Notes: generated by a model from the letters alone, not told the origin. A stretch of DNA of 64,000 nt from Asticcacaulis sp. (GCA_047605545.1 JASGFL010000003.1:14755-78754), one strand, 5' to 3'; shown: positions 12,645 through 41,248, numbered from the stretch's first letter. Numbers and translations are program-made.

Positions 12645-12673
12645 TCCGTCCCCAATCTCCTCCCTACTCAAGC

Positions 12674-12724: not shown

Positions 12725-12736
12725 CTGAAATTCAGA

Positions 12737-14760: not shown

Positions 14761-14782
14761 GGGGTTTCCTCTGGTGCATTTT

Positions 14783-14794: not shown

Positions 14795-14917
14795 TTGTCG
14801 CACAGAGATGCGGGCGTCAATAAAAAAGTTATAACTTATACTAAATATTCCTGATCTGAGTTTTTGCGGTAATAAGTGTCATTATAGCGCAGATCGGTCG
14901 CAACGGATGGAACAGAT

Positions 14918-20906: not shown

Positions 20907-20997
20907 TAGCCCGATACCCATAAACAGAACGCCGGAACAGGGGCCGGTAATGGCCCGAAAACGGCGACATAAAAGAAAAAGAATCAGGAGAACAGGG

Positions 20998-22841: not shown

Positions 22842-24332
22842 ATGGCACGTAAAAAATATGTCGTTGCCCTGACGACGGCTCTGGGGTTCCTGACGGCGGG
22901 AGCCTTTGCCGCCGGTGCCCTGTCTGCGCGCCCGTGGTGGGCACCGGGCGACGGGCGACTGTTCAAGGCGCAGGAAGACTATGTCCATGCCGATGGTGTG
23001 CTGCGCACTATACTTGAGGGCGGAGACATTGACACCAAAGGCCATGCCTTCTTTGAGCCGATGGGTAAGGATGGTCGCGCCTGTGTCACCTGTCACCAGC
23101 CTGCCGACGGGATGGGGTTGTCGGTTGAAAGCATCAAGGCCCAGTGGACGGCAACCAAGGGCAAGGATCCGCTGTTTGCGGCCTATGATGGTTCAAACTG
23201 TCTGACCCTGCCTCAGGGCATTGAGGCATCACATTCCCTGCTGCTTGAGCACGGCCTGATCCGTATTCAGCGGCCCTGGCCGCCCAAGGATGTCGCGCCT
23301 GACTTTGACATTGAGGTCGTGCGCGACCCCTATGGCTGTAATACCGGCAAGACCTTTGGCCTGACGGCCAGTACCCCGACCGTGTCGGTTTACCGGCGAC
23401 CGCGTCCGGTGGCCAATATGAAGTTCCTTCTGGCCATGGGCTTTGCCTATGACCCTAAGGACGGCATGCCGTTACGGGTTGATCCGGAAACCGGCAGGCA
23501 GGCGACCGGCAATCTGATGGCGGATGCCCGTCATCCGTCGCTTAAGGCGCAGTTGTTGGATGCCGGTGATACTCACCTTCAGATGTTTGAGGCCTTTACG
23601 CCCGCCCAGCAGGCTCAGATCATCGATTTCGAGAACCGTATCTTTACCGCCCAGATCAAAGGGCCGGGGGGTGTTGATCTTGATCAGGGCGGAGCCATTG
23701 GCGGGCCTAAGGCGCTGATGGAAACGCAGGCCGGACTTCTGGGTGGCTCGACCCGTCCGGTCTGGAGCGAATTTCAGGCATGGGAAAACATGTCGGCCAG
23801 CGAAAAGGCCTCCCTGCCAAAGGATGTGGTTGCCTATCGTGAATCAGTGGCGCGTGGTGCAAGGGTTTTCAGGGAAAAGACCTTCATCATCTATGACAGT
23901 GCCGGTATTAACTCACCCGTAGGCTTCGGCAATCCCGTGCGCAATTCCTGCGTCTTCTGTCACAATATGGCGGGTATGGGCAATGATGTGGCCCCCGGTC
24001 AGGTCGATCTTGGGACCACCACCCAGCCCTTCAGTGATCCGGCACCGCATCTGCCCCTGTTCCGTATTACCTGTAAGGGGCCGCCGCATCCGCACTATGG
24101 CCGCGTTATTCTTACCAGTGACCCCGGCTATGGTCTGACCTCCGGCAAATGCGCCGATGTAGGCAAGATCACCCTGCAATCCCTGCGTGGCCTATCGACG
24201 CGCGCACCCTATTTCGTCAATGGCACCGCCAAGGACCTCAGGGGCGTGATCGATTACTACGAACGCCGGTACAATATCGGCTACACCGAACAGGAAAAGG
24301 TCGATCTGATTAATCTCATGAAGGCATTGTGA
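22842..24332 (+). CDS. Secreted di-haem c-type cytochrome of the bCCP/MauG superfamily
   Basis: Signal peptide; CxxCH at 23082-23096 (CVTCH) and 23949-23963 (CVFCH); C-terminal SDPG...GK...LRGL..RAPYF.NG...L..VIDYY...EK.DLI pattern. Confidence 0.75.
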   Translation: MARKKYVVALTTALGFLTAGAFAAGALSARPWWAPGDGRLFKAQEDYVHADGVLRTILEGGDIDTKGHAFFEPMGKDGRACVTCHQPADGMGLSVESIKAQWTATKGKDPLFAAYDGSNCLTLPQGIEASHSLLLEHGLIRIQRPWPPKDVAPDFDIEVVRDPYGCNTGKTFGLTASTPTVSVYRRPRPVANMKFLLAMGFAYDPKDGMPLRVDPETGRQATGNLMADARHPSLKAQLLDAGDTHLQMFEAFTPAQQAQIIDFENRIFTAQIKGPGGVDLDQGGAIGGPKALMETQAGLLGGSTRPVWSEFQAWENMSASEKASLPKDVVAYRESVARGARVFREKTFIIYDSAGINSPVGFGNPVRNSCVFCHNMAGMGNDVAPGQVDLGTTTQPFSDPAPHLPLFRITCKGPPHPHYGRVILTSDPGYGLTSGKCADVGKITLQSLRGLSTRAPYFVNGTAKDLRGVIDYYERRYNIGYTEQEKVDLINLMKAL

Positions 24333-25150
24333 TGCAGGCTCCGTCTTTTTTCAAAATGAACCTGCCTTCGGGCAAAAGCCTTGCGGCTACGGGTCTTCTG
24401 ATGGCCATGATCCTGTCGGCCACTCAGGCGGCGGCTACGGACATCAAGGTTCTGGCCTGCCCCATATATCGCGACGCCAATCTGATGCGGGTGGCGGGGT
24501 GCTGGCTGGTGGATGATCCGCTGACGGGCATACGTTATGATGTGTCCGACACGGTTTCACGTCCCGACTGGAACTATGCGGTTCTGGTTGAGGGGCGTCT
24601 GGCGAAGGATACCAACGGGGGCTGCGGCGGGCTGAGGCTTGAGTCCCTAAGAACCTCGGTCATGTATGACATGCCCTGTACCCGACATATGCTGCCGGCG
24701 GATGGCTATTCCGGACGTGACCGCTATCGGGCGGCGCGCAATGTTCAGCCGACCCATGCCTTAAGGCCTGAGATCGCCAAACCCCATACCGACAAGAGCT
24801 TTTATCTTTACTACGATTTCAACAAGAGCTTCGGCATCTATCAGTATGATGACTATCTTCTGGACGTGGCGATCCACCATATCCGTTCGGTGAAACCGGC
24901 GCGGATTATCGTTACGGGCTATGCCGATACGCGAAAGCAGATCGTCTCAGGCACCGAGATTTCAGAGACGGAGCAAATCGCCAGAGATCGTGCGGAAATG
25001 ACCGTCGAATCCCTGATAAGGCTTGGGGTCAAACCTGAGATGATCGAGATGCGTATTGCCGTCGATTCTCAGCCCATTGATGACGAAGGCGCGGACGGAC
25101 TGCCGGATCAGTCACGTCGGCGTTCCGAAATCCGCGTCCTGATGAATTAA
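24332..25150 (+). CDS. Secreted protein: N-terminal four-Cys domain of unknown function plus C-terminal OmpA-like domain
   Basis: YYDFNKS...IIVTGYAD...ARDRAEMTVESLIRLGV...RRRSEI resembles OmpA_C. Translationally coupled to the cytochrome (TGATG). Confidence 0.65.
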   Translation: MQAPSFFKMNLPSGKSLAATGLLMAMILSATQAAATDIKVLACPIYRDANLMRVAGCWLVDDPLTGIRYDVSDTVSRPDWNYAVLVEGRLAKDTNGGCGGLRLESLRTSVMYDMPCTRHMLPADGYSGRDRYRAARNVQPTHALRPEIAKPHTDKSFYLYYDFNKSFGIYQYDDYLLDVAIHHIRSVKPARIIVTGYADTRKQIVSGTEISETEQIARDRAEMTVESLIRLGVKPEMIEMRIAVDSQPIDDEGADGLPDQSRRRSEIRVLMN

Positions 25151-25284
25151 ACAGTTTGTGATGTCAGGAGGTGGTAATTCTGTTTCCTGATGGGGATGAG
25201 CGGACTAAAATCCTGAGATGAACAATCCCGCCGTCCTCAGTGATGTGCGGGATTTTACACGTCATATTTTTCAAGGACAGACCT

Positions 25285-26265
25285 GTGCCTAATGCCTCAA
25301 TTGCCGGAAGCCCTGTAAATCCCCTTGGTCTGGGGGCGATGAATTTGTGTCATGCCTATGGCGTGGCCCCCACTTACGAAGACGGCATCAGGCTGTTGCA
25401 GCGGGCGCTGGATCTGGGGGTAAACCACATTGATACCGCTGCATTGTACGGGTTTGGTAAGAGCGAAACCATGGTCGGTGAGGCCCTGAAAGGGCGGCGG
25501 CAGTCTGCGTTTCTGGCCTCAAAATGCGGCATGACCGGTGTGAACGGCAAGCGGGTCATCGACGGTCGGCCTGAGACGCTTAAGGCGACCATAGATGAGG
25601 CGCTGACGCGTCTTCAGACTGACTATGTCGATCTTTATTATCTGCATCGGCTGGACCCGAACGTGCCGATCGAAGAGTCGGTGGGGGCGATGGCCGATAT
25701 GGTTTCTGCGGGTAAGGTCAGGGCGCTTGGTCTGTCCGAAGTCTCAGCAGATACGCTGAAGCGGGCGCATGCCGTGCATCCGATTGCCGCCTTACAGACC
25801 GAATATTCCCTGTGGTCACGTAATGCAGAGATTGCGGTGTTAGAGGCCACCCAAGCCATAGGGGCCGCGTTTGTGGCCTTTTCGCCGGTCGGTCGCGGGT
25901 TTCTGGCCGGAGGGGTCACAGATCTGAATTTTGCCGAACGCGATATTCGTATCCCTATGCCGAGATTTCAAAGCCCGAATTTTGAAAAGAACCTTGAGCT
26001 GTATCGCGCCCTGAAAAATCTGGCGGATCTGTCAGGAGTCACACCGGCGCAACTGTCCTTGCGTTGGGTATTGGCTCAGGCGGCGCACATCCATGTTATC
26101 CCCGGCACAAGATCAGTGCCTCATCTTGAGGAAAACGCGGCGACGCCTGAGATTGATGCGGCGGTGCTTGAGGCCGCAGGTCGCCTGATTAATCAGCAGA
26201 CCGTGTCCGGCCCCCGCTATCCGGCAGATGTGCAAAAGGATATTGATACCGAAGAATTTACCTGA
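25285..26265 (+). CDS. Aldo/keto reductase
   Basis: LGLGAM, catalytic tetrad in IDTAALYG, LASKCG and YYLHRLD, LQTEYSLW, IPGTRSVPHLEEN. GTG start after AAGGAC. Confidence 0.9.
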   Translation: MPNASIAGSPVNPLGLGAMNLCHAYGVAPTYEDGIRLLQRALDLGVNHIDTAALYGFGKSETMVGEALKGRRQSAFLASKCGMTGVNGKRVIDGRPETLKATIDEALTRLQTDYVDLYYLHRLDPNVPIEESVGAMADMVSAGKVRALGLSEVSADTLKRAHAVHPIAALQTEYSLWSRNAEIAVLEATQAIGAAFVAFSPVGRGFLAGGVTDLNFAERDIRIPMPRFQSPNFEKNLELYRALKNLADLSGVTPAQLSLRWVLAQAAHIHVIPGTRSVPHLEENAATPEIDAAVLEAAGRLINQQTVSGPRYPADVQKDIDTEEFT

Positions 26266-26291: not shown

Positions 26292-26325
26292 AAAAAAAAG
26301 GGGGCGAACATGAAAATTCGCCCCC
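26292..26325 (-). terminator. Intrinsic terminator of the CoA-transferase / dehydratase-like / CocE-2 operon
   Basis: Stem GGGGGCGAA / TTCGCCCCC with T8 on the minus strand. Confidence 0.8.
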
Positions 26326-26335: not shown

Positions 26336-28201
26336 CTATTTGACGGGTTTGCCGATCATGTTCGGCCGATTGTAGCCACCCAGCACCTTATCGAGCGCGG
26401 CGTCGCGTGTATCGACATCGGGAACCTCAAGGTAGGACGGATGGTTGGCATCAAGGTGCAGCTTCACCGGTGCCGGAGACTCAGGCCCTGCCAGAGGGGG
26501 GCGCGTCGTCACGGCCAGACGCAGAAGATCGCCCGGACGGAAGGTGAAAGCCGTCGGTGTCAGGGCAATATCAATGGCCACAGGCGCATCTGAGGTCAGT
26601 GGCTGATGGTCAGCGCGGGCATGGGTTTGCCAGGGGACACCATCCACCTTGTAAGGGGCGGTGCCGGTTTTACGGTGCGATACGCGCAAAGCGCCACGGG
26701 CGATGGTCTCGGTGCCGCCCATAACGTGCGCGCTTTCGAGATAGACATAGATGTCCGCATCGGCCTGTTCGGAGGAGACCCACAGACGCACCGTCGGAGA
26801 GCCTATGATCTCGCGCCAGTCTTCCTGAGCGGGTAGGGTAAAGGTCGCGCTGTAAGGATCAATGCCAGTACGCGGCAGGCCGTAATAGACGTGCGGCGTG
26901 GTCGTCGGCACATTGGCCAGCTCAACCGCCGGAAGGTCAGAGGCCGGTTTATCTGCCGACAATGAGCCGCCGATCAGCGAAGGCTGAAGGACGCGCGCAC
27001 GCGGCTGACCCGGCGGGGTATCCATATTGAGATAGTAGCGTGTGCGCGGCACATCCTGCGTCCAGTGTTCCAGCGCCCGCCATTCGGTGCCGTCTGCTGC
27101 GCGGGTGACATAGGTATGGATCGGCGGGCCGTCCATTACACCGTTCGGTGTCCCTTTCAGCCAGTAATCAAAAAAGCGCAGGCGTTCGGTATCCAGCGCA
27201 AAACCGGGCGATTCACAGTGATGCCAGTTGCCGAAGGTCAGTTTGGTATTGGGGCCGGCATTCAGATAATGATGGATCGTCTGGTCGGGATAGACATCAT
27301 AATAGCCGCCATAAAGATAAAGGGCAGCCCCTGCTTTCATGGTTTCGGCATCCGGATAGAAGCTGCCGGTCTTCCACCACTGATCCTTGGTGTAGGGGTT
27401 GATGTCATCACGAAACGGCGTTGACGCAAAAAACTGACCGGTCGGCGTATTCAGCTTGCGACCTTCGAGTGCCTTGGCCAGTTCTGTGCGGTTAGGGTCA
27501 GCATCGACTTCAACCACGCGTTCGCTGGCGGTGACTTCATCCGCCAGTCCTTTGGAGGCGATCCCGCCCTTACCAAAGGTATTGTACTGATCAAAGGTCG
27601 TCGTACCGGCGAAAACCGCCTTAAGGTGCGGCGGGCGTGACTTAAGCGCCTGAAGGGCGGTGGCCCCATAGTAAGAACAGCCCATCATGCCGATATTGCC
27701 ATTGCTCCACGGCTGAGCCGCCAGCCATTCGGTAATGTCATAGGCATCGGTGGTTTCATTGCGGTCGGCGGGGCCTGCGCGCACCCCGAACGAGGCGCCT
27801 TTGCCGCGTACATCGGCGACGGCAAAGGCATAGCCGTGGTTCAGCATATCCAGCGGCAGGCGCGAGCCGGTCTCAAGCTTGCCGTCAGAACGGCGTGTAG
27901 ACCGGTTATAGGGGGTGAAAATCCAGACTGTCGGAAAGGCTTCGTTGGTGAGTTGCCCGTTACGGGTCGGACGGTAAATATCGACCGCCAGCCGCGTACC
28001 GTCGCGTGCGGTCATATATTCAGAGGTGCGGACATGACCATCATAGGTGGGAATGGAATAGCCGCTGTAACGGCCAAATTCAGAAATCTTTTCGGTCTTT
28101 GCGGCGGGACTTTCCTGCGCGCTGACTATGGTCGCAGACAGGGCAAGGGCTGTGCCGAGGCACAGGGCCAGACGCCAGCCTTTTCGGTTAGATACAGGCA
28201 T
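26336..28201 (-). CDS. Secreted CocE/NonD-family serine hydrolase (CocE-2)
   Basis: Signal peptide, RDGTRLAVDIYRP, FTPY, DVRGKGASFG, WSNGNIGMMGCSYYG, GGYYD, GNWHHC. Confidence 0.88.
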   Translation of the reverse strand: MPVSNRKGWRLALCLGTALALSATIVSAQESPAAKTEKISEFGRYSGYSIPTYDGHVRTSEYMTARDGTRLAVDIYRPTRNGQLTNEAFPTVWIFTPYNRSTRRSDGKLETGSRLPLDMLNHGYAFAVADVRGKGASFGVRAGPADRNETTDAYDITEWLAAQPWSNGNIGMMGCSYYGATALQALKSRPPHLKAVFAGTTTFDQYNTFGKGGIASKGLADEVTASERVVEVDADPNRTELAKALEGRKLNTPTGQFFASTPFRDDINPYTKDQWWKTGSFYPDAETMKAGAALYLYGGYYDVYPDQTIHHYLNAGPNTKLTFGNWHHCESPGFALDTERLRFFDYWLKGTPNGVMDGPPIHTYVTRAADGTEWRALEHWTQDVPRTRYYLNMDTPPGQPRARVLQPSLIGGSLSADKPASDLPAVELANVPTTTPHVYYGLPRTGIDPYSATFTLPAQEDWREIIGSPTVRLWVSSEQADADIYVYLESAHVMGGTETIARGALRVSHRKTGTAPYKVDGVPWQTHARADHQPLTSDAPVAIDIALTPTAFTFRPGDLLRLAVTTRPPLAGPESPAPVKLHLDANHPSYLEVPDVDTRDAALDKVLGGYNRPNMIGKPVK

Positions 28202-28217: not shown

Positions 28218-30656
28218 TTATTGTTTTTTATTCCTTATGCACTGGTCAAGAAATTGCGTGACCAGAGTTTCTATCGGGCCGTTTTCCGGCTGGCCCAGAT
28301 TTGACATAGGCAGTCTGAGTACCGGTATTCCGGAGGCCTCAAGCGCCCTGAGAACGAACGGATCGGCGTCATCAATGGCAATGGCGGCATCCACTTTGTT
28401 TGTGCGGGCCTCCTTGACGTGCCAGGCTCCGGCCCATGTCGGCATACGCAGTTCGTCACCCATGGTAATAAAGCGCGCCGCCAGTGAACGCATGGGGTCG
28501 CGTTCATCCGTATGTTCACGAATATAGCCGTCGGCCGCCAGCGCCAGATACATCGACCACACGAAGACCGCGCCGTGGCTGTCCTGCCATTTCTGATAGA
28601 AGGCGGTATCGCTCCACAGGCCGCGCCCGACCCACATCAGCCTCAGACGCTCGGTTTCACAGACCCCCTGACCGGCATCGACGCGGGCCTTGACCTCCTC
28701 ATAGAAAGCCTTGGCCGCATCACGCGCCCAGACCGTGCCCCTGTGCCACTGAGGCACCATGGTGGCAGGCATGGTGTCAACCACACTAACCGGTGCGGGT
28801 ACGGTTTCGGCAATCAGGTCACGCGTGCGGCGGTAATAGCTTTCCTGTGAATTGACCAGATCAAGTATGTCGATGAATTTTTGCGGGTCCCATGTCCGGC
28901 CCGTAGCGGCACTAAGACGCCTGACCATCGCGTTCAGTTCGGCGGTCATCAGATCAAGGCGCTCTGGCTGAAGGGCGGTGTCCCAGTGATCGGGCAGGGC
29001 ATCCCACCAGTTCTCGGGCAAATCCCAGCGTGTTTCGACTGAGCGCTCGTAGATATAAAGGTCGCTGCCGGAGGCTTCGGCCCAGGCATCAAACAACGGA
29101 CGCGTGGCATCACTTTCGGGAACCGTGTGCAGCATGTCAGGCTTGGGCAGTCCGCCCCACGGTGCCTGATCTGCGTCGTCGTCATAAAGGGCGGCCAGTC
29201 CCTGCGCGCTGTAGGGTTCGACATCAGCCGGATGATCATGGGCGGTCAGCAGGGCCGCGTAACGCTTTGATTGGCGTTTGGCGGCAACGATTGAGGCCCA
29301 CCACTGATTGACGACAAAAGGAATATCCAGCGCCCGCAATATCTCCTGAGGGGCATTGGCATTGACCAGTGCAAACGGGCTGCCGGATGCGACGGCGGCC
29401 TGTACGTCAGCGAACCAGCTTTTCTGATAGGCCCCGAAATCAGCGGTGGAGGTCAGAGATTTCTGGCTTCGGGTTTGCGGGGCGCGGGCAGGTCGTGCGG
29501 CGGCTGGCTTTTCAGGCTTGGGTGCAGCGGCATCGACAACAGGTGATATGTCGCTGTTTGATATAGTGGCTGCCGACGGGGCGGCAGCGAAGCTCAGGAC
29601 ATGTGCGGGCAGATCAGAACTGTATCGGGCCGCAAGGAAGGGCACGCCTGTATCGGCACAGGTACGGCCCAGAGGCTTGGCAAGCCACGGGCTGGTTTCA
29701 TCGCCGCTCAGGCTGAGGTGCAGCACGCCGTCGGGCTGATAATGTGCCAGCGTGCGGGCCAGGCTGGACTGCAATGATTTGGCGTCGGAAAAGGCACCGC
29801 CCTTCCATTCGCTGACGCTGTTGAGCAGGCGCTCACGTGGTGGCGTGTCCGAAGCTTTAAGTTCAGGCACGTGCACCAGAGCCTCGGCGACGATGGTGGC
29901 CCCATCGGCCTCTATGGCGGCATAGGCTTCGGGTGGCAGGTCAACCGAACCGCTTAAGACCAGACGCGGGCCGGTGCGGGCGACGGGTAGTGGGCCATCG
30001 GCCCAGCCGCGTAGCAGATCGGCGTAAGCGTCGGCGGGCAGATAATCAGCGGCGCGGCGCGCCAGCGCGGCATCCGTACCCGATATCAGTCCCTGTGCGC
30101 GCCATTCACGGATGGCACGCCCCAGTTTCTGGTGGCTGGCGGCGGTATCAAGGGCCTGCGTAAGATCATCATCGCTAAAAGGTTGGCCCAGATTTGTGCA
30201 CCACGACTCAAGCCGTTCAAGCTGATGCCGGTTATAGGCCTGAGTAGACGGAGTATTCAGACGCAGAAGGTCGCAGAAAATGACCGTGTCTGCGGTCAGA
30301 CCCAGTTCCGGCAATTCACGCAAGGCGGCAAAAAGCTGAACCTGAATGGCGGCGCTGTGCGACAGGATCAGGCCGCTTAAAGGGGCCGTATGCGTCAGAC
30401 CGTCACTGATCTGCTGCAACAGGCTGCGGCCCTGCCAGCTTAAGGTAATCCCAAGGCCGCGTGCGTCGGCGAAGGGCGTCGGCTGACCGGTAATCGGCCT
30501 CAGTCTGACCGGTGTCAGTCCCGCAGCCCGTATCAGAGGAAAGGGGAGGTCATCCCCGATACAGGCCACGACCCGCGCCCCTGAGGCCGTCAGGCGGGTA
30601 AGGGCGGCGGTCAGGCCCGCGTTAATGATGTCACGTGCCGTATCCGCCGGTGTCAT
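28218..30656 (-). CDS. Fused two-domain 2-hydroxyacyl-CoA dehydratase (HGD-D/FldBC/BcrBC)-like protein, 812 aa, Fe-S cysteines apparently absent
   Basis: Domain 1 is beta-like (LPFPLIRAAGLTPVRL, RLVLSGS, PDGVL, GVPFL). An Ala/Pro/Ser linker lies at about aa 355-400. Domain 2 is alpha-like (PQEILRALDIP, GGLPKPD, TGRTWD, ERLRLMW, GAVFV, DPMRSLA, GIPVL). Confidence 0.72.
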   Translation of the reverse strand: MTPADTARDIINAGLTAALTRLTASGARVVACIGDDLPFPLIRAAGLTPVRLRPITGQPTPFADARGLGITLSWQGRSLLQQISDGLTHTAPLSGLILSHSAAIQVQLFAALRELPELGLTADTVIFCDLLRLNTPSTQAYNRHQLERLESWCTNLGQPFSDDDLTQALDTAASHQKLGRAIREWRAQGLISGTDAALARRAADYLPADAYADLLRGWADGPLPVARTGPRLVLSGSVDLPPEAYAAIEADGATIVAEALVHVPELKASDTPPRERLLNSVSEWKGGAFSDAKSLQSSLARTLAHYQPDGVLHLSLSGDETSPWLAKPLGRTCADTGVPFLAARYSSDLPAHVLSFAAAPSAATISNSDISPVVDAAAPKPEKPAAARPARAPQTRSQKSLTSTADFGAYQKSWFADVQAAVASGSPFALVNANAPQEILRALDIPFVVNQWWASIVAAKRQSKRYAALLTAHDHPADVEPYSAQGLAALYDDDADQAPWGGLPKPDMLHTVPESDATRPLFDAWAEASGSDLYIYERSVETRWDLPENWWDALPDHWDTALQPERLDLMTAELNAMVRRLSAATGRTWDPQKFIDILDLVNSQESYYRRTRDLIAETVPAPVSVVDTMPATMVPQWHRGTVWARDAAKAFYEEVKARVDAGQGVCETERLRLMWVGRGLWSDTAFYQKWQDSHGAVFVWSMYLALAADGYIREHTDERDPMRSLAARFITMGDELRMPTWAGAWHVKEARTNKVDAAIAIDDADPFVLRALEASGIPVLRLPMSNLGQPENGPIETLVTQFLDQCIRNKKQ

Positions 30657-31927
30657 TATATGGCTCCCGCAGCCTTGAGTTCGGCAATGCGTTCGGGGCT
30701 GTAGTTCAGAAGGTCGGTATAGACGCGGTCATTATGTTCACCGATATGAACCGGCAGGACATCATCGAAACCGGTGCGGCTGTCCGAAAACCGGATCGGG
30801 ACGCCTGCGGTGCGCAGCTGATCATCGACCTCATAATAGGGGTGGCGGGTTTGCTCGGTTTCACCACGGGCAATAACGCGCGGATCCTTAAGGGCGTCTT
30901 CAGGGGTGCGCACCGGTGCCACGGGCACGCCTTCGGCCTCAAGGGCGGCCACGGCTTCGGCAACCGTGATCTGGCTCGACCAGGCGGTGATGCGTTCTTC
31001 AAGCGGCTGGAAATTGGCCACACGTGCGTCACGGCGGGCATAGCGTTCATCCGCCAGAAGGTCTTCGGCCCCCATGGCCCGCATCAGCCCTTCGGCCAGC
31101 GGATCGTGGGTCGCCACAATGGCAATATAGCCGTCGCTGCACTTAAAGACGCCAAAAGGCGACAGGCGCTGTACCGTCAAGCCAGTACGGCGCGGCATGC
31201 CGGACAGGCGCATGGCCCGCCAGTTTTCAATGGCCACGAACGAGGTCAGTGCCCCCAGCATAGAGACATCGACCTTCTGGCCGACACCGGTTTTGTGACG
31301 CTGTTCAATTGCCGCCAGAATACCGATAACGCTGAAGACAGGGGCCAGCATGTCGGCCATAGGGATGCCCATGCGCACCGGCGGGGTGCCGGTTTCACCG
31401 CTGGCGTACATGGCACCGCTCAGGGCCTGAATGATCACATCCATTGCCTTGGTGCCTTCGTCCACACCCTGACCGAAACCGCTGAGGGCGCAATAGACGA
31501 CGCGGGGATTAATGGCGTGTACGGCCTCATAACCGATGCCAAGGCGGTCGGCCGTGCCGCTGGTGAAATTTTCAATGACGATATCGGCGCTGCGCACCAG
31601 ATCGGCAAAAACATCCAGAGCGCCGGGGCGCTTGAAGTTCAGCGAAATGCCGTATTTACCGCGTGCGCGCGACAGGTGTGAAACCGAGACATCGTCATCA
31701 TGCACCTTTTGCACCACCACGCCGTCACGGCCAATATAAGGACTGTTTTCACGCGCCAGATCGCCGTGGCGAGGGTCTTCGACCTTAATGACCTCTGCGC
31801 CGAGGCCTGCCAGAAGAAGCGTGGCATAGGGGCCGGCAAGGGCGCGCGTCAGGTCGATAACTCTCAGGCCTTCGAGTGGGCGCGCAAGGGCTTCCCCGGT
31901 CGTGGTGCCAGATGGCTGAGTGTCCAT
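30656..31927 (-). CDS. Family III CoA-transferase (CaiB/BaiF)
   Basis: LEGLRVIDLTRALAGPY, GAEVIKVE, ADIVIENF, YCALSGFG, catalytic Asp in AMDVIIQALSG, GVPIRFS, IGEHN. Its stop overlaps the next start (TAATG). Confidence 0.93.
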   Translation of the reverse strand: MDTQPSGTTTGEALARPLEGLRVIDLTRALAGPYATLLLAGLGAEVIKVEDPRHGDLARENSPYIGRDGVVVQKVHDDDVSVSHLSRARGKYGISLNFKRPGALDVFADLVRSADIVIENFTSGTADRLGIGYEAVHAINPRVVYCALSGFGQGVDEGTKAMDVIIQALSGAMYASGETGTPPVRMGIPMADMLAPVFSVIGILAAIEQRHKTGVGQKVDVSMLGALTSFVAIENWRAMRLSGMPRRTGLTVQRLSPFGVFKCSDGYIAIVATHDPLAEGLMRAMGAEDLLADERYARRDARVANFQPLEERITAWSSQITVAEAVAALEAEGVPVAPVRTPEDALKDPRVIARGETEQTRHPYYEVDDQLRTAGVPIRFSDSRTGFDDVLPVHIGEHNDRVYTDLLNYSPERIAELKAAGAI

Positions 31928-31959: not shown

Positions 31960-31987
31960 AAATATAATTGCATTATTCATCTAATAT
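31960..31987. promoter_or_regulatory. Candidate operator upstream of the CoA-transferase
   Basis: AAATATAATTG-CATTATTC-ATCTAATAT shares both blocks with 8620-8650 and contains the palindrome ATAAT-TGC-ATTAT. Confidence 0.45.
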
Positions 31988-32117
31988 CTGGCGCGCGTCA
32001 ATAGGGGGTTTTTTGAAAAAAGGCGATATTTTGAGCAATTATCATCATTTTGCGGTGCAAAATAAGCGGGAACTGCGTATTCTGAACGAAAGATTAAGTT
32101 GGTTTACGGAAATTTGC

Positions 32118-32231: not shown

Positions 32232-34910
32232 ATGCGGTATATTAATCGCGCAATGCCCGTCCGTGCCCTGTTGGCAACGGTCGCCCTGACTGCCCTGTCC
32301 GCCGGCGTGGCAAGCGCCCAGCAGTCAGATGAGAGTGAATCAGCGTCAGATGCCAATGTAACCGAAGTCGTGGTGACCGGAAGCCGTATTCGCGGCGTGG
32401 CCCCCGTGGGTTCGAACCTGATTTCCGTAACGCGTGACGAGTTTACCAAATCCGCAGCCGTGTCCACGGCCGAGCTGTTTAAGGATGTGCCTCAGGCGAT
32501 CAATATTGGTGTCAATGAAACCAACCGCGGCGCACAGGGTGGTTCGGGTAACATTACCTATGTGAACTCGGTTAACCTACGCGGTATCGGGCCATCGGCG
32601 ACCCTGACGCTTCTGGACGGGCACCGCCTGCCGGGCAGCGGCACCGGCGGCGCCTATTCTGATACGTCGGTGGTGCCTATTCTGGCGCTGCGCCGTATGG
32701 AAATTATTGCTGACGGTGCGTCGGCTATCTACGGTTCGGACGCTGTGGCCGGTGTGGTCAACCTGATCCTGCGTCGTGACCTGAATGGCGTTGAAGCCAA
32801 TGCCCGTTATGGCGTTGCTGACGGCTATGATACGCGTCAGTTCGGTGTCGCTGCCGGTAAGACCTGGAGCACAGGTCAGTTCATGGCGACTTTTGAACAC
32901 AGCTATCACTCGGCCCTGCGCAGCCGTGACCGTGACTTCATCGTCTCTGATCAGCGCGAAATGGGCGGGCCTGACTTCCGTGTCACCAACTGTAATCCGG
33001 GTAACATCATTCAGGGCGGCGTCAGCTATGCCATACCTGAAGGCGGCATCACGGCGGGCAATGCCGGTTCGCTGGTGGGCGGTACGTCCAACCGCTGCGA
33101 TCTGGGACAATATGTTGATGTTATTCCTGAAATCGAAAAGAACGGTCTGGTTCTTACCTTTACGCAGGAACTGGCACCCGGTCTGAAGATTGTCGGTGAC
33201 GCCTTCTATTACAAGCGCGAATTCCTGCGCAATGTAGCGACCTCGGCTCAGGTGCTGACGGTGCCGCGCAGCAACGCGTTCTTTGTCGATCCGACCGGTA
33301 CCAACCCGGCGTCGCATCAGGTTCAATATTACTTCGGTAAGGACTATGGTCTGACCACGCCTAACCTTGGGGAATCCGAAACCTATCAGGGGACTGTGGC
33401 CCTGCACATGGACTTCAACGCCGACTGGAAAGGCGAAGTCAGCTATTCGGCAGGCTATAACAAGGACACGGCCTATAACTACGGCATTTACGCGGCGGGT
33501 CTGACGGCGGCTCTGGCCTCAAGCAATACGGCTACCGCCTTTAACCCTTATGGCGGCACCAATTCTCAGGCCGTGATTGACACCTTTGCCAACGGCTATG
33601 TCAGCCTTGGTGCGATTGGTGGCACCGGACATCGCCAACTGCAGTTCAAGACGGATGGCCCGCTGTTCAGCCTGCCTGCCGGTCAGGTACGTCTGGCTCT
33701 GGGTGTTGAGCACATCACCCTGACCAACAAGAACGGTTCCTATACGGGCTGGGATGATGCCCTGACCGGACGGGCCAATGACCTGTCGCGTAACATCAAG
33801 TCGGGTTATTTCGAAGTCCTGATCCCTGTGTTCAGCGAAGCTAATGCTATTCCCGGCTTCCGCCGTCTGGATATCAATATTGCCGGTCGTTACGACGAAT
33901 ATAGTGACGTTGGTGCAACCCGTAATCCTAAGGTCGGGATCAACTGGGTGCCAGTTAACGGCCTGACCCTGACCGGTTCCTATGGTACGTCCTTCCGTGC
34001 GCCGAACCTTGGAAGCCTTGTGTCATCCAATCCGGCTCTGACGGTGCAGAACTTTGTCGATCCTGAATCTTCGACCGGTTACACGCAGGGCTATGCCTGG
34101 AGCGAAGGCAATCCGAACCTGAAGCCGGAAACGGCGGAAACATGGTCGGTGGGTGCGGATATCCGTCCGCCTGCATTGCCCGGCCTCGGGATCACGGTCA
34201 GCTACTTTAACGTCAAGTACGAGAACCAGATTTCCAACCTTCTGGGTAACCTGACGGCGCTGCAGTATCCAGACATCTACGGCGACTATATTATCCGCAA
34301 CCCGTCTCAGGCTCTGGTGGATGAACTGACCGGTCGCCTGCGTATCTCCGGCGTGCCTTTGACGACAGTTCCGGTTATTGTTGATGCACGTTCGGCCAAT
34401 ATGGGCGTGACGGAAATCGACGGTGTTGACTTCAATGTCCGCTATAACTTCAGCACCGATAACTATGGTGACTTCCGCGTCGGCGTGAACGGTATCTGGT
34501 ACAACAGCTATAAGGTGGCTCAGACCCCAACCGCCGATCTGGTGGAACGTCTTGGTCTTCTGAACTATCCGGTGGAATACCGTCTGCGCGCCAATGCCAC
34601 ATGGACCTATGGCGATCTGACGACGACCGCCTATGTCAGCCATGTGCCGTCCTATAAGAACGACAGCGTCAATCCGGCGCAAACGGTCGATAGCTGGACG
34701 ACGGCTGATCTCAACCTGTCCTATGCCCCTGCACACTGGGAAGGCATTCTGGGCGGCACGACGCTTGATGTGAACATCACCAACCTGTTCGATCAGGATC
34801 CGCCCTATGCGGCGCTGGCCCCAAGCACCAACCAGAGCGGTGGCTTTGACGTGCAAAATGCCAACCCGCTGGGTCGCCTGATTACCTTCGGTATTACCAA
34901 GCGCTTCTGA
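32232..34910 (+). CDS. TonB-dependent receptor (TBDR-2), 892 aa, paralog of TBDR-1
   Basis: GGAGG ribosome-binding site, signal peptide, VTEVVVTGSRIRGVA, NLRGIGPSATLTLLDG, ADGASAIYGSDAVAGVVNLI, C-terminal NLFDQDPP...ITKRF. Confidence 0.95.
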   Translation: MRYINRAMPVRALLATVALTALSAGVASAQQSDESESASDANVTEVVVTGSRIRGVAPVGSNLISVTRDEFTKSAAVSTAELFKDVPQAINIGVNETNRGAQGGSGNITYVNSVNLRGIGPSATLTLLDGHRLPGSGTGGAYSDTSVVPILALRRMEIIADGASAIYGSDAVAGVVNLILRRDLNGVEANARYGVADGYDTRQFGVAAGKTWSTGQFMATFEHSYHSALRSRDRDFIVSDQREMGGPDFRVTNCNPGNIIQGGVSYAIPEGGITAGNAGSLVGGTSNRCDLGQYVDVIPEIEKNGLVLTFTQELAPGLKIVGDAFYYKREFLRNVATSAQVLTVPRSNAFFVDPTGTNPASHQVQYYFGKDYGLTTPNLGESETYQGTVALHMDFNADWKGEVSYSAGYNKDTAYNYGIYAAGLTAALASSNTATAFNPYGGTNSQAVIDTFANGYVSLGAIGGTGHRQLQFKTDGPLFSLPAGQVRLALGVEHITLTNKNGSYTGWDDALTGRANDLSRNIKSGYFEVLIPVFSEANAIPGFRRLDINIAGRYDEYSDVGATRNPKVGINWVPVNGLTLTGSYGTSFRAPNLGSLVSSNPALTVQNFVDPESSTGYTQGYAWSEGNPNLKPETAETWSVGADIRPPALPGLGITVSYFNVKYENQISNLLGNLTALQYPDIYGDYIIRNPSQALVDELTGRLRISGVPLTTVPVIVDARSANMGVTEIDGVDFNVRYNFSTDNYGDFRVGVNGIWYNSYKVAQTPTADLVERLGLLNYPVEYRLRANATWTYGDLTTTAYVSHVPSYKNDSVNPAQTVDSWTTADLNLSYAPAHWEGILGGTTLDVNITNLFDQDPPYAALAPSTNQSGGFDVQNANPLGRLITFGITKRF

Positions 34911-34917
34911 TAGAGTA

Positions 34918-34956
34918 AAAAACCTCTCGTACCTTAACCGGCCGCGAGAGGTTTTT
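34918..34956 (+). terminator. Stem-loop terminator/attenuator after TBDR-2
   Basis: AAAAACCTCTCG / CGAGAGGTTTTT. Confidence 0.7.
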
Positions 34957-35032
34957 ATCTTCGGCCGGAAAACCGGTCACACGGTTCTTGAATAAATATA
35001 ACGCATCGTAAGCGTACTCAGGGAAAACGACA

Positions 35033-36874
35033 ATGAAGTCTGCCGGTATGGGTCTGTTCATGGGGGTGGCTGTTGCGACCCTGACTTTGCCTTTCGCCGC
35101 TGTGGCCAAGCCCGGCGAATATGCGGCAACGCCACAATATAACAGTTTCGTTCGCACCACTGAACTGGTGGAGGTGCGCGACGGGGTGCGTCTGGCGGCA
35201 ACGGTTTATCGGCCGGCAATCAATGGCGTGGCGGTCGATAAGCCCCTGCCGGTGCTTTTCAACCTCACCCCCTATCTGTCACGGCGCATTGATGCGGACG
35301 GCAAGATCACAGGCTCGATCGAGGTCGAGAACCGCCGTAACCGTCCGTTCGCGCAACTTACCTATTATGGCTATGTGGTGGTGGTTGCCGATGTACGCGG
35401 CAAGGGCTCATCGTTTGGCACGCGCTGGGCCTATGCCGATCAGCACGAAGGCGAAGACGGCCACGATCTGGTACAGTGGATGGGCAAGCAGGGCTGGTCC
35501 GACGGTAAGGTCGGCATGTTCGGTTGTTCCTATGTCGGTGGAACCCAGTGGGCCACGGCGCGTAACACGCCTTCGCACCTAAAAGCGATTTTCCCGCAGG
35601 CAGCGCAATTCGACAGCTATCGCAATGTGCGGCGCGGCGGCATTTCCGGTCAGTACAATACCCGTCCGCAGAAGATCGACGAAGACTTCCCTACGGCTCC
35701 GGTCGATATTGATAAGGACGGCAGCCTGAAGGCGGCGGCGCTGAAACAACATGAGGCCAATGGCCAGATGATGGATCTGGTGTCGTCTCTGGTCAATCGT
35801 GACGACCGGACGGACAAGGATATATTGTACTGGGCCTTGTCATCGCCCTATCCGAAGATCGAAGACATGCGCAAGGCGGGCATTTCGGTCTATCTGTGGG
35901 GTAACTGGCGCGATGAGCCGGTCGATCAGGCCTATATTGCCTATGAGAATATGAAGGATGGCACGGGTCTGACCAAGATGATTGTCGGGCCGGGCGACCA
36001 CTGCGATACGGACACCATCGACTCGTTCAATGAGCATCTGCGTTACTTTGATTACACCCTTAAGGGCATTGAAAACGGCATCGCCAGCGAACCGCCGATC
36101 TATTACAAGACCATAGGTCTGCCCGAAGATCAGGCGTGGCGTTTTGCCGATGATCTGCCGCTGAATGACGCTCCGGCAACGCGGTTCTATCTGGGGCCAA
36201 AGGCAAGCCTCAGCCAGACAATCGCCTCAAAGCCTGCCTTTGATCGCTATAATGTGACCTATCGCGTCGGCTGTCAGCCACCGGCCTTTGCGCGTGGGAC
36301 ATCGATGATGACCTTCACGCCGTCAGACAGTGACGAACTGCCCGAACCGGGCATGTGGCCATGCGTCAATTCGCAGGCCGCGAAGCTTTATGAAACCAAG
36401 GCCATGCCCGAAGATATGTGGCTGTCCGGTTTTTCGATTGTCAGCCTGACGCTGAAAAGCTCGGCCCCTGAAGCCTATGTTTTTGCCTATCTGGAAAAGG
36501 TTGCGCCTGACGGTAAGGCTGAGATTATCGGCCACGGACGTTTGCTGGGGTCGCAACGCGCTCTTGGTGAAGCGCCCTATAAAAATCTTGGGCTGCCCTG
36601 GCATCCGTTCAGCCGCGACACCCATGAAGCTGTGCCGGTCAATGAGCCGGTCAACCTGACCTTTGAGCTTAATCCGACTTCGGAAGTCATCCCCAAAGGC
36701 CACAAATTGCGCCTGTCGTTCACCGGCGTCGATCAGCGTCAGCGCAACTGGAAGGCGCTGCGGATCGATCCGGCACCGGTCTGGGATATTGCCGTTGGCG
36801 GTAAGGACGGCTCCTATATTGATATGAAACTGGTCTCGGCCAAACAACTGACGAAGGGAACGGCCAATGACTAA
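35033..36874 (+). CDS. Secreted CocE/NonD-family serine hydrolase (CocE-3)
   Basis: Signal peptide, RDGVRLAATVYRP, LTPY, DVRGKGSSFG, WSDGKVGMFGCSYVG, GNWRD, GPGDHC. Confidence 0.88.
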   Translation: MKSAGMGLFMGVAVATLTLPFAAVAKPGEYAATPQYNSFVRTTELVEVRDGVRLAATVYRPAINGVAVDKPLPVLFNLTPYLSRRIDADGKITGSIEVENRRNRPFAQLTYYGYVVVVADVRGKGSSFGTRWAYADQHEGEDGHDLVQWMGKQGWSDGKVGMFGCSYVGGTQWATARNTPSHLKAIFPQAAQFDSYRNVRRGGISGQYNTRPQKIDEDFPTAPVDIDKDGSLKAAALKQHEANGQMMDLVSSLVNRDDRTDKDILYWALSSPYPKIEDMRKAGISVYLWGNWRDEPVDQAYIAYENMKDGTGLTKMIVGPGDHCDTDTIDSFNEHLRYFDYTLKGIENGIASEPPIYYKTIGLPEDQAWRFADDLPLNDAPATRFYLGPKASLSQTIASKPAFDRYNVTYRVGCQPPAFARGTSMMTFTPSDSDELPEPGMWPCVNSQAAKLYETKAMPEDMWLSGFSIVSLTLKSSAPEAYVFAYLEKVAPDGKAEIIGHGRLLGSQRALGEAPYKNLGLPWHPFSRDTHEAVPVNEPVNLTFELNPTSEVIPKGHKLRLSFTGVDQRQRNWKALRIDPAPVWDIAVGGKDGSYIDMKLVSAKQLTKGTAND

Positions 36875-38300
36875 CCGGCATATGTCACGACGTACATTAT
36901 TTGGCAGTGTGGCAGCGCTGGCGGCCCTGACGGCGATGCCGGTGACGGCAAGTGCACGCCCCCTGCCGCGCGTAACCCAACTCCCTGATGCAGGTGCAAA
37001 AGGTCTGCTGATCTGGGACGTGACGGGTCTGGGCTATATCGCCGAAGAATTCATGATTGAAGGCAAGGCCGATGTGCTTGAGTCCGTATCGATGGCCGAT
37101 GCCGTGGATATGTCCAAGCGTAATGGTCTTGAGGATTTTCTGCGCCGCGATTTCAACCGTACGGTTGTTGCCGAAGCCCGCCCCTATGCGACACGCGTGG
37201 TCGTCTATCGCCCGATAGACATGAGCCGATTCAGCGGCCGGATTTTGCTTGAGGTGCTGCACCCAAGCGGCGGCGGTCGGGCCAATGTCTGGCAACGTAC
37301 CTATGACCTGCTGGCGGATCGCGGCGACATCACCATCGGTATTCAGCCGCCATTCAACGTCAAGGAACTGCGCGAAGGCGATCCGGTACGTTATGGAAAG
37401 CTGCATGCCGAACACCCGACCCAGCTTTGGGATGTGGTGACGGATGTCGCACGTCTGACCAAGACCGTAGGTGAGGGCGGATTGCTGGGCGGGGCCGTGG
37501 CGCGGCATCAGGTGCTGGCCGGTTTCTCCTATACCGGTGTGGCCACGGCAAACTATGCCAATTTCCAGCATGACCGTGCCCGTCTGGCGGATGGCCGGCC
37601 ACTGATTGACGGCTATATGCCTATGGGTTCGGCGACCTTTGTGCGTCCATTGGATGTGCCGGTGATACGCATGACAACCCAGAGCGAATTTGACGGTATT
37701 CAGGGCATCCGCGCCCGTGTACCTGACAGCGATGACCCCAAGGGTCGGTGCCGTCTGTACGAAGTCGCCGGTGCGCCGCACTCGACCGTACCTTTGCCGG
37801 TCGGGGCCGCGCTTGCGCCCACCAAGACGGTGCCTGAGCCTGCCGGCCTGCCGCGTTTCTCGCCTGAAACCTGTCAGCAGGGATTTCCGGAAACATCCTA
37901 CCGCAATGACTTTCCGCTGCATCTGGTGATCGAAGGTATCTATGTGAATATCTTTGAGTGGATCGAAAACGGCGTCGTGCCGCCTCATGCGCCCCTCATT
38001 GAGGTGGACGCCGAGGGACGGACACTGGTGGACGAATTTGGCAATGCCAGGGGCGGTCTGAGGCTTCCGGAAGTGACCGTGCCGATTGCCACCTATGGCG
38101 TAGGCGCAAAGGGCCCCTGCGGTAATTTTGGTTACACCAAGCCCTTCACGATTGAGGAAAAGCGCCGCCTGTACGGCAACAAGGCGGCCTATGTCTCACG
38201 CGTGCGTCAGGCCTCCGAAACCTTGTTTACAGAACGTTTTGTGACGGCCAAAGGCAAGAACAGACTGATTGGTTTAGCGGCAGCGACTGAGGCATTTTAA
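36867..38300 (+). CDS. Tat-exported alpha/beta-hydrolase-domain protein
   Basis: Tat signal SRRTLF; TRVVVYRP...FSGRILLE, LAGFSYTG elbow, YEVAGAPH, DEFGNARGGLRLP, LYGNKAAY. Confidence 0.75.
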   Translation: MTNRHMSRRTLFGSVAALAALTAMPVTASARPLPRVTQLPDAGAKGLLIWDVTGLGYIAEEFMIEGKADVLESVSMADAVDMSKRNGLEDFLRRDFNRTVVAEARPYATRVVVYRPIDMSRFSGRILLEVLHPSGGGRANVWQRTYDLLADRGDITIGIQPPFNVKELREGDPVRYGKLHAEHPTQLWDVVTDVARLTKTVGEGGLLGGAVARHQVLAGFSYTGVATANYANFQHDRARLADGRPLIDGYMPMGSATFVRPLDVPVIRMTTQSEFDGIQGIRARVPDSDDPKGRCRLYEVAGAPHSTVPLPVGAALAPTKTVPEPAGLPRFSPETCQQGFPETSYRNDFPLHLVIEGIYVNIFEWIENGVVPPHAPLIEVDAEGRTLVDEFGNARGGLRLPEVTVPIATYGVGAKGPCGNFGYTKPFTIEEKRRLYGNKAAYVSRVRQASETLFTERFVTAKGKNRLIGLAAATEAF

Positions 38301-38800
38301 TGGGCGGATCAATAAAATCATCTGATGAGCCGGAACGCCCGCTGCACTGGGCGGCGAAGATTCCGCTGTTTCTGGGATCCGTGGCCATACTGGTGGCCAT
38401 GACGGCGGATTCGCTGGCGGTTGTGGGGCGTCATGCCAACATCCCTCTGCTTGGCACGGTTGAGATTGTGCAGCTTGCGGCCAGTATTGCCGGTGGTGCC
38501 ACTATTATCTGTGCCACGATTGCCGGTGCTCATGCCTCGATCCACGTGTTGACCGATCGGGTATCACCTGAGGTGCGGCACAGGTTGTTGACCTTTGCCC
38601 GCCTGATGACGGCCATCTTCTTCGTCGCCCTGACGATAGGTTGCGGCTGGTTGATGGTGGACATGCTGGGGCAGGGCGAGCGTACCGAACTGACGGGTAT
38701 GCCACTTATGCCGTTCCGTCTTTTGGCGACATTGGCGTTCGGGGCTACGGCCCTGTTGTATGTGATCGCGTTATTCAAACCTGAAAAGAGTAAGCAATGA
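38300..38800 (+). CDS. dctQ: TRAP transporter small permease
   Basis: Four transmembrane segments, DSLAVVGR...P..GTVEIVQ, AHASIHVL. Upstream of dctM. Confidence 0.85.
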   Translation: MGGSIKSSDEPERPLHWAAKIPLFLGSVAILVAMTADSLAVVGRHANIPLLGTVEIVQLAASIAGGATIICATIAGAHASIHVLTDRVSPEVRHRLLTFARLMTAIFFVALTIGCGWLMVDMLGQGERTELTGMPLMPFRLLATLAFGATALLYVIALFKPEKSKQ

Positions 38801-41246: not shown

Positions 41247-41248
41247 AT

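Follow-up and report, generated by a model that had tools for sequence, protein, structure and literature searches.

The closest described systems to the locus analyzed here are HadBC with HadA and HadI from Clostridioides difficile and FldBC with FldA and FldI from Clostridium sporogenes, each of which pairs an alpha and a beta subunit and is linked to a family III CoA-transferase. In HadBC, three cysteines per subunit hold a [4Fe-4S] cluster (PMC7317905), and in BzdNO the ligands are Cys95/128/380 of BzdO and Cys36/73/100/263/293/327 of BzdN, the latter six for an [8Fe-9S] cluster (PMC11971306). The benzoyl-CoA reductase/2-hydroxyacyl-CoA dehydratase (BCR/HAD) family to which these proteins belong is described as a group of radical enzymes that contain iron-sulfur clusters, depend on ATP for activation, and are strictly anaerobic (PMC7317905, PMC11971306), and a review of its sequence space mentions only Cys-containing clusters. 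Here, we analyzed a 64,000-nucleotide stretch of Asticcacaulis sp. DNA (GCA_047605545.1 JASGFL010000003.1:14755-78754; referred to as the window, within which all coordinates are counted) whose minus strand encodes, at positions 28218 to 31927, a family III CoA-transferase and an 812-amino-acid (aa) protein that joins both HGD-D modules of this family in a single chain. Like the Had and Fld systems, the fusion has the fold of both modules (template modeling [TM] scores of 0.76 to 0.80 to the chains of 3o3m), the alpha-plus-beta pairing, and the linked transferase. Unlike them, it is a fused polypeptide from aerobic hosts that lacks the 3+3 Cys ligands, the [4Fe-4S] cluster, and an ASKHA-type activator. 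We favor, with a probability of about 0.55, the reading that the fusion is a cofactor-swapped enzyme, free of Fe-S clusters, that converts acyl-CoA esters by non-radical chemistry and that, together with the transferase, processes a carboxylic acid, possibly aromatic, taken up by the cell. No description of a Cys-less branch of the BCR/HAD family or of this operon was found in the full-text literature searched, and a paper on bile salts in Sphingomonadaceae mentions no such gene.

The domain composition of the fusion was established by profile searches and by structure comparison. PF06050 matched two stretches of the protein (Table 1), and profile-to-PDB searches assigned the N-terminal domain (N-domain) to the beta type (BzdN, E = 6e-21; HadC, E = 1.5e-14) and the C-terminal domain (C-domain) to the alpha type of the substrate-binding subunits (MbdO, E = 5e-17; HadB, E = 9e-17). 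An AlphaFold2 model built with 28 homologs had a mean predicted local distance difference test score (pLDDT) of 86.5 and a predicted TM score (pTM) of 0.89. When this model was compared to the PDB with Foldseek, it matched HadB/HadC, BzdO/BzdN, MbdO/MbdN, and the double-cubane proteins, with target-normalized TM scores of 0.63 to 0.80 and E values of 1e-10 to 1e-15, and no match outside the BCR/HAD family was found below an E value of 1e-2. Taken separately, the N-domain scored 0.74 to 0.79 against BzdN, HadC, and MbdN, and the C-domain scored 0.73 to 0.80 against HadB, BzdO, and MbdO. The sole long disordered stretch of the model (residues 368 to 397, pLDDT <50) lies in an Ala/Pro-rich segment, residues 358 to 397, and the linker varies in length and sequence among homologs. 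Profile matches, linker composition, and model thus agree with an earlier note on this DNA, which had read the protein by eye as a beta-like and an alpha-like HGD-D domain joined by an Ala/Pro linker. Because the two domains are of these types, the fusion is predicted to correspond to the HadBC/BzdNO heterodimer with beta and alpha joined in one chain, with the C-domain as the presumed substrate-binding and catalytic module. The NCBIfam HadB model scores the fusion at 50 bits versus a cut-off of 750.

The residues that hold the clusters in characterized enzymes are absent from the fusion. Its six Cys residues (positions 32, 128, 153, 333, 666, and 806) all lie away from the ligand sites, and the six motifs that the earlier note had quoted as replacing the ligands were found at residues 72 (LSWQGRS), 99 (SHSAA), 316 (LSGDE), 478 (DVEPY), 513 (PESDA), and 761 (IDDADP). 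That by-eye alignment proved essentially right, since profile alignments also place non-Cys residues at the beta and alpha ligand sites. In the profile-to-PDB alignments, the beta-ligand positions (C73, C100, and C327 of BzdN and their equivalents in HadC) correspond to L72, A102/A103, and G318/D319. The first two alpha-ligand positions correspond to E480 and S515 in the alignments to HadB and MbdO. The loop with the third alpha Cys is deleted, leaving D763-A764-D765-P766, and where Cys-bearing relatives have the C[KRT]x loop, the alignment shows a gap; at the first alpha site, these relatives have CxYC and the fusion has EPYS. An alignment of 78 sequences was made from the window protein and 77 locus homologs, and column statistics were drawn from the 75 full-length homologs. 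No conserved Cys triad was found among these 75, and neither cluster site holds a Cys, Cys/Asp, or Cys/His triad. Across the 78 aligned sequences, only one column is rich in Cys (C666, 76%), and several members have only one or two Cys residues in total.

What is conserved instead is a set of acidic and hydroxyl residues. All 75 homologs have E or D at position 480 and S or T at position 515; at position 516, 99% have D or E, and D763, A764, D765, and P766 are each invariant (75/75). The old alpha cluster site of the fused family is therefore an invariant acidic/hydroxyl set, E480, S/T515-D516, and D763-A-D765. At the former beta site, only D319, E320, and W324 are kept, and these are near-invariant. 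Near-invariant polar or aromatic residues number 80, most of them in the C-domain, and those in common with the canonical enzymes include the PQE motif with E438 as well as R672. Of the HadB residues, PQE and the Arg of R-x-M are kept. The window copy and its nearest relatives (P0004, P0005, P0008, and P0011) depart from the N-domain consensus at R75Q, D102A, and E104I and have the C-domain site intact.

No activator of the kind that the canonical enzymes require was detected. The absence of an ASKHA-type activator gene from the 64-kb window, as the earlier note had reported, was borne out, and the search was extended with TIGR00241, the model of HgdC/HadI-type activases. TIGR00241 had no match in the host genome (3.27 Mb, 92% complete) and scored over its cut-off in 0/121 genomes of the host's order and in 0/28 isolate genomes that carry the fusion; as a control, it matched 7/14 well-known genomes, 6 of them over the cut-off. 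At 92% completeness, the absence from the host genome alone is not absolute. Three host genes matching PF01869 were considered as hidden activators and rejected because they lie beside apparent nagA-, SIS-, and MFS-type genes, which point to GlcNAc kinases, and because TIGR00241 was blank. The genome encodes two heme-copper oxidase subunit I proteins, and the window carries O2-dependent aromatic oxygenases; the host, which had been taken to be an aerobe, is thus predicted to respire oxygen. Other carriers include Sphingomonas, Novosphingobium, and Caulobacter. Cys ligands, activator, and anaerobiosis, three defining features of the family, all fail, and classifying the fusion as a 2-hydroxyacyl-CoA dehydratase would be inappropriate. 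With neither Fe-S clusters nor ATP-driven electron injection, ketyl-radical chemistry would not be possible.

A reader might object that the acidic residues at the old ligand positions still hold an Fe-S or other redox cofactor, on Asp, Glu, and Ser ligands, and that radical chemistry proceeds with an unrecognized electron donor. In a few proteins, a single iron of a [4Fe-4S] cluster is known to be bound by a carboxylate, but we know of no cubane that lacks Cys ligands altogether. In the fusion, the loop of the third ligand is missing and the beta site has not been conserved; no activase scored over the cut-off in the host or the 28 carrier genomes, and the hosts are obligate or predominant aerobes, so that we regard this explanation as very unlikely.

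The loss of the ligands is neither recent nor confined to this copy. A word-indexed search returned 439 homologs of the fusion, and a scan of one genome per species returned 308 fusion loci, corresponding to at least 308 species. These are mostly Sphingomonadales, Caulobacterales, Niveispirillum, and Steroidobacteraceae, with a few in Alteromonas, Hydrogenophaga, and Rubrivivax. The proposal that an aerobe kept the transferase/dehydratase architecture and dropped the radical machinery holds with respect to the missing Cys and activator, but the loss is old and family-wide rather than local. The fusion is common in Sphingomonadales and Caulobacterales and occurs in only 2/121 sampled genomes of the host's own order, which suggests that the fusion island was probably acquired horizontally. 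The closest named relatives are ∼54% identical. Such a patchy distribution, together with the three N-domain departures from consensus in the window's sub-clade, is what might be expected of an anaerobic dehydratase gene that was acquired horizontally and is now decaying. However, the reading frame is intact, and the ratio of nonsynonymous to synonymous substitution rates (dN/dS) against the closest relative (L084, 79% identical) is 0.16 at a dS of 0.85, with values of 0.09 for the C-domain and 0.25 for the N-domain. In 14 other pairs, dN/dS ranged from 0.08 to 0.21 overall, from 0.12 to 0.28 for the N-domain, and from 0.03 to 0.13 for the C-domain. The CoA-transferase is likewise constrained, at 0.075 against its L084 counterpart. 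The copy is under purifying selection, full-length copies occur in 308 species, and the operon is conserved; decay of the gene is refuted by these data.

To place the fused family among its relatives, 1.8 billion representatives were searched with a profile of the C-domain, which yielded 147 proteins at an E value of ≤1e-30. Both fused (about 750 to 845 aa) and stand-alone (about 410 to 447 aa) forms are present. The stand-alone alphas are 36 to 44% identical to the C-domain and fall into a Cys-bearing group (e.g., P0135, 44% identical), most of whose members have Cys at the three alpha sites and a few of which lack the second-site Cys, and a Cys-less group (P0140, P0143, and others). The beta partners of the Cys-bearing alphas (L085:850-2016 and L088:611-1744) lack all three beta Cys. 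Cluster loss in the clade therefore appears to have been stepwise, beta first. The HadC cluster is taken to relay the activator's electron. Given the Cys-less beta partners, the whole clade probably has no need of electrons passed on by the beta cluster, and an alpha cluster that has been kept may serve solely as a Lewis acid. HadC is not the subunit of HadBC to which the substrate binds, and its cluster is seen as accessory, not catalytic (PMC7317905).

The split pairs share with the fusion the motifs NQWW, PWGGLP, RLMW-G-G-W, and AVFVWS-YL as well as the same kinds of partner genes, namely, a family III CoA-transferase, PGA_cap, an alpha/beta hydrolase, a MarR, PaaX, or LysR regulator, and a TRAP or MFS transporter. 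Unlike the fusion, they are not joined and lack the E480, S-D, and D-A-D set, and some of the alphas keep three Cys. The gene order is PGA_cap-beta-alpha-CoA-transferase-DctQ in L085, a pair with a Cys-bearing alpha, and in L086 (with a family I transferase in L086), and in L088, another pair with a Cys-bearing alpha, the beta and alpha genes accompany DctPQM, LysR, a family III transferase, and a large hydrolase. Among the Cys-less pairs, L089 has the order hydrolase-PGA_cap-CoA-transferase-beta-alpha, with MarR and MFS genes, and L087 of Sphingomonas soli has a TonB receptor, RPE65, beta, alpha, CoA-transferase, and PaaX. S. soli carries a fused copy (L058, with DctQ, DctM, and DctP genes and four transferases) in addition to this split pair with RPE65 and PaaX, which suggests two distinct substrates for the paralogous modules. 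In S. soli NBRC 100801 (BCTZ01000001), four genes 3′ of the split pair, after the CoA-transferase, PaaX, and MFS genes, lies a gene for an 842-aa PFL-like protein (L087:12791-15319; PFL-like, E = 4e-157; Gly_radical, E = 6e-23), and a second Logan contig is alike. Sphingomonas is generally regarded as aerobic, and this protein adds a second case of an "anaerobic radical" fold occurring in an aerobe.

The remaining described relatives of the fusion differ from it in the same respects. The class I benzoyl-CoA reductase modules BzdNO and MbdON, which are its best profile matches, both bind aromatic acyl-CoA; BzdNO needs the ATP-dependent BzdPQ and Cys-held clusters, which the fusion lacks. The double-cubane proteins DCCP and YjiM share its fold (TM scores, 0.63 to 0.70), but the seven-Cys motif and ATP-dependent reductase partner of DCCP (PMC7317905) are not found with the fusion. 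AcuN/AcuK (acrylate to 3-hydroxypropionate) was considered as a parallel pair and set aside, judging by the descriptions, in which AcuK is a hydratase grouped with AcuH (acryloyl-CoA hydratase) and has no link to HGD-D. A broader parallel is provided by the fumarases, where an oxygen-labile Fe-S enzyme (class I) is replaced in aerobes by a cluster-free one (class II). The two fumarase classes are unrelated folds, whereas here the replacement would fall within one fold.

The CoA-transferase matches PF02515 over its full length (profile positions 1 to 366 of 366), and its closest structures are 4ed9, the SUGCT entry 9br7, and the YfdE entry 4hl6. The best curated models were those of succinyl-CoA:mesaconate and succinate-glutarate CoA-transferases, at ∼250 bits versus cut-offs of 700 to 750. 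It had been described as FldA-like; the family III assignment stands, but the protein appears to be a generic member, with its nearest matches among the Mct, SUGCT, and YfdE types and not specifically FldA/HadA. The Asp of its GIPMADMLAP motif, whose column we take from the motif, rather than from an alignment, to be that of the catalytic nucleophile, Asp169 of Frc or YfdW, is kept in this protein (P0002) and in 10/12 aligned paralogs, with Tyr in one paralog type. The transferase stop and fusion start overlap by one base, and the junction (...GCC ATA TAATG ACA) agrees with the TAATG overlap seen before.

The association of the two genes was examined at 80 loci. A transferase ortholog adjoins the fusion at 78 of them, with a median identity of 71% (versus 47% for the fusion). 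DctQ, DctM, and DctP homologs are present at 64 to 65 of the 80 loci, mostly directly 5′ of the CoA-transferase and fusion genes, MarR homologs at 50, a TonB receptor at 46, a PGA_cap protein at about 32 to 35, and a CocE/NonD hydrolase at 13 or more; in the closest relative, L084, where the gene order is identical, the hydrolase is also 3′ of the fusion. Relatives have fuller operons, of the types DctQMP-CoA-transferase-fusion-CoA-transferase-CoA-transferase-PGA_cap and DctQMP-four CoA-transferases-fusion. Further neighbors in relatives include GDSL and HSL-type esterases, a GH43 glycosidase, aldo/keto reductase, P450, and MFS transporters. Aldo/keto reductase homologs (61% identity) occur at seven loci, at one of which, L061 of Sphingomonas, the gene is directly 3′ of the fusion. 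In the four-transferase operons, one paralog (L033:4344-5519 and L055:4409-5467) reads QAYAL, with Tyr for Asp, where the others read MADML, and scores weakly against all curated models; this paralog is probably a non-catalytic subunit. The PGA_cap (CapA/MslH-like) protein accompanies about 40% of the fused loci (e.g., L014:12678-13790) as well as split Cys-less (L089:1231-2427) and Cys-bearing (L085:2-835) relatives. MslH is a metal-dependent epimerase of the C-alpha of the C-terminal residue (PMC10406935), and its likeness to the PGA_cap partner hints at a stereocenter beside the carboxylate in the pathway substrate.

These conservation patterns bear on whether the fusion is an enzyme at all. 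It is possible, although we consider it improbable, that the protein is a non-catalytic partner, i.e., a specificity, stabilizing, or channeling subunit of one or more transferases or an acyl-CoA sensor. None of the canonical ligands of the catalytic cofactor remains, conservation is higher in the transferase than in the fusion, the N-domain is comparatively fast-evolving, and the three or four transferase paralogs of relatives, including the one without the conserved Asp, suggest multi-subunit assemblies. Such a pseudoenzyme is harder to reconcile with a C-domain of 75% mean column identity (the N-domain is less conserved) and a dN/dS of 0.03 to 0.13, with the many invariant charged residues at the former active site, more than scaffolds usually keep, and with the retention of both subunits in split versions across phyla. 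Somewhat more doubtful still is the proposal that the fusion acts on a non-CoA substrate, such as a free acid, an ester, or a peptide-like compound, while the transferase handles another intermediate, at an earlier or a later step. For the fusion, CoA binding is deduced, the acidic pocket could take a cationic substrate, and PGA_cap partners of the MslH type (PMC10406935) and hydrolases accompany the module. Against this proposal, the CoA-transferase adjoins and is coupled to the fusion at the 78 loci and is present in every split relative examined, an obligate linkage, and the characterized family members found bind CoA esters or, in the case of DCCP, small molecules.

Under the preferred reading of a non-radical acyl-CoA-converting enzyme, the order of steps would follow from gene linkage, from hydrolase to TRAP transporter to transferase to fusion. 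The TonB receptor would import a compound that the exported esterase/peptidase-fold hydrolases would split, and the TRAP system would import the carboxylic acid released. The transferase would form the CoA thioester of this acid, and the fusion and the translationally coupled transferase would act as a working unit, as do FldBC and FldA. The alpha-like C-domain, which we take to be the working module because of its conservation and its homology to the substrate-binding subunit, would bind the thioester and carry out a non-redox, oxygen-insensitive beta-elimination/hydration or isomerization. That the chemistry would be non-radical is argued from the absence of clusters and activator. The acidic set (E480, S/T515-D516, and D763-A-D765) would lie where the [4Fe-4S] cluster acted on the thioester carbonyl and, being invariant and placed at the old ligand loops, may provide acid/base groups or ligands to a divalent metal. 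The CoA ester produced may pass its CoA on to the next substrate molecule, and either the acid or its thioester is probably the signal for the MarR regulator.

Weak leads suggest that the substrate is an aromatic, phenylpropanoid-type acid. The suggestion derives from the MarR protein, whose best PDB match is CouR (6c28, E = 1e-11), ahead of SlyA, from the GH43 gene and the GDSL and HSL-type esterase genes near the module in relatives, and from the ferulate, vanillate, and protocatechuate genes that adjoin the locus. The effector of CouR is p-coumaroyl-CoA. Aryl-lactyl-CoA, the example put forward in the earlier note, may be such a substrate, weakly favored by the CouR match and by the adjoining ferulate/vanillate genes. 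The best PDB matches of DctP were weak, at 64 to 70 bits (4n6d, 5im2, 7nsw, and 7nrr); the last two may be TarP-type hydroxycinnamate binders, and no weight is placed on them here. Ferulate as the direct substrate was rejected, since a canonical set of CoA ligase, enoyl-CoA hydratase (ECH), and aldehyde dehydrogenase is encoded at 8704 to 12644 and the neighborhood is not conserved.

Several points weigh against the preferred reading. A simple beta-elimination is cheap via crotonase or MaoC, and the reason for keeping an 812-aa protein for it is not obvious. The proximity of E480, D516, and D763/D765 in three dimensions is a deduction from their alignment to the ligand loops, and the set could bind a cationic group of the substrate instead of a metal. 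The set is also confined to the fused family and absent from other Cys-less clades, and it may thus not be a general solution. The ferulate gene neighborhood is not conserved in relatives. Finally, the host genome has a minimal set, with one other PF02515 gene and no PGA_cap gene, and since it lacks the extra transferase paralogs and the PGA_cap of relatives, the pathway here may be trimmed. A more specific version of the preferred reading is offered tentatively, with the odds against it: an oxygen-labile [4Fe-4S] cluster, which polarizes a thioester carbonyl, would have been replaced within one fold by a carboxylate-lined site (E480, D516, D763, and D765), serving as acid/base or binding a simple divalent metal, for the oxygen-proof conversion of 2- or 3-substituted, possibly aryl, acyl-CoAs, in a CoA-recycling, ATP-free shunt with the transferase. 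The clade would then keep the intermediates, from an alpha with a cluster and a beta without, to neither with a cluster, to the fused form.

The coordinates of the locus and its surroundings are collected in Table 1. The transferase, the fusion, and an exported CocE/NonD hydrolase, whose nearest PDB match is cocaine esterase, form a three-gene minus-strand operon bounded by a promoter-like site and a strong terminator-like hairpin. The promoter-like site lies in an AT-rich, 304-bp divergent intergenic region in common with the TonB receptor operon. This region is the likely place of a putative MarR operator, although a search of it for such an operator returned a single weak inverted repeat only. 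The divergent plus-strand operon (32232 to 41785) comprises genes for the TonB receptor, CocE/NonD, Abhydrolase_10, DctQ, DctM, DctP, and MarR, with all three TRAP components present as consecutive genes (38300 to 41246).

Table 1. Positions of features at the fusion locus and its neighbors in the 64,000-nucleotide window
Feature	Position	Strand	Evidence or remark
Promoter-like site, TTGACG-18-AATAAT	31972-32001	-	10/12 consensus matches; consensus scan only
Family III CoA-transferase, 423 aa (P0002)	30656-31927	-	PF02515 CoA_transf_3, E = 1e-105
Fusion protein, 812 aa	28218-30656	-	PF06050 HGD-D, two stretches, E = 8e-48
N-terminal beta-type HGD-D module, residues 1-367	29556-30656	-	Profile, Foldseek
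Ala/Pro-rich linker, residues 368-397, predicted disordered	29466-29555	-	pLDDT <50
C-terminal alpha-type HGD-D module, residues 398-812	28221-29465	-	Profile, Foldseek
E480 codon	29217-29219	-	First alpha-subunit Cys-ligand position; alignments to HadB, MbdO, and Cys-bearing relatives
S515-D516 codons	29109-29114	-	S515 at second alpha Cys-ligand position
D763-A764-D765-P766 codons	28359-28370	-	Remnant where the third-alpha-Cys loop is deleted
Exported CocE/NonD-family (S15) hydrolase, 621 aa, signal peptide	26336-28201	-	PF02129, PF08530, TIGR00976
Intrinsic-terminator-like hairpin with T-run, end of three-gene operon	26300-26325	-	10-bp stem, 7 GC pairs, T8
Aldo/keto reductase beside operon, possible accessory gene	25240-26265	+	PF00248
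TonB-dependent receptor, first gene of divergent operon	32232-34910	+	PF07715, PF00593
CocE/NonD hydrolase, 613 aa, apparent signal peptide	35033-36874	+	Signal read from N-terminal sequence
Abhydrolase_10 protein, apparent Tat-type signal	36867-38300	+	Signal read from N-terminal sequence
TRAP transporter DctQ	38300-38800	+	PF04290
TRAP transporter DctM	38797-40098	+	PF06808
TRAP DctP-type binding protein	40074-41246	+	PF03480
MarR-family regulator	41249-41785	+	PF01047

Other parts of the window were recorded alongside the locus. Three CocE/NonD (S15) paralogs (20851 to 22788, 26336 to 28201, and 35033 to 36874) are clustered within 16 kb, next to two TonB-dependent receptors, with signal peptides clear by eye in at least the second and third. 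At 22842 to 25150, the gene of a 496-aa protein without a Pfam match overlaps the start of a gene for a degenerate OmpA-domain protein. The first 14,820 nucleotides of the window (1 to 14820) hold a canonical lignin-monomer funnel of ferulate, vanillate, and protocatechuate genes, encoding two Amidohydro_2 proteins, a LigB-type extradiol dioxygenase, a GFO/IDH/MocA-family oxidoreductase, and a FAD_binding_3 monooxygenase that is maybe PobA-like. They are accompanied by genes for the aldehyde dehydrogenase (8704 to 10170), the enoyl-CoA hydratase (10188 to 11024), and the AMP-binding CoA ligase (11145 to 12644), as well as a reductase and a Rieske-motif oxygenase (12737 to 14820) read as VanB- and VanA-like. 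After the funnel come a probable GntR-type regulator gene and a gene for an MFS-type transporter, each identified by reading the sequence only.

The locus represents a large, cluster-free and activator-free branch of the BCR/HAD family that is strongly selected in aerobic members of the Alpha-, Beta-, and Gammaproteobacteria and that annotation pipelines mislabel as "2-hydroxyacyl-CoA dehydratase." It is part of a widespread catabolic module of plant- and soil-associated bacteria, composed of a TonB receptor, exported hydrolases, a TRAP transporter, one to four family III CoA-transferases, the HAD-like protein, MarR, and often PGA_cap. If the chemistry is non-radical, the BCR/HAD fold would support a second, non-radical chemistry, and biocatalysis could profit from an enzyme that converts hydroxyacyl- or enoyl-CoA esters and is stable to oxygen. 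The branch makes the replacement of an Fe-S enzyme during a move into air testable.

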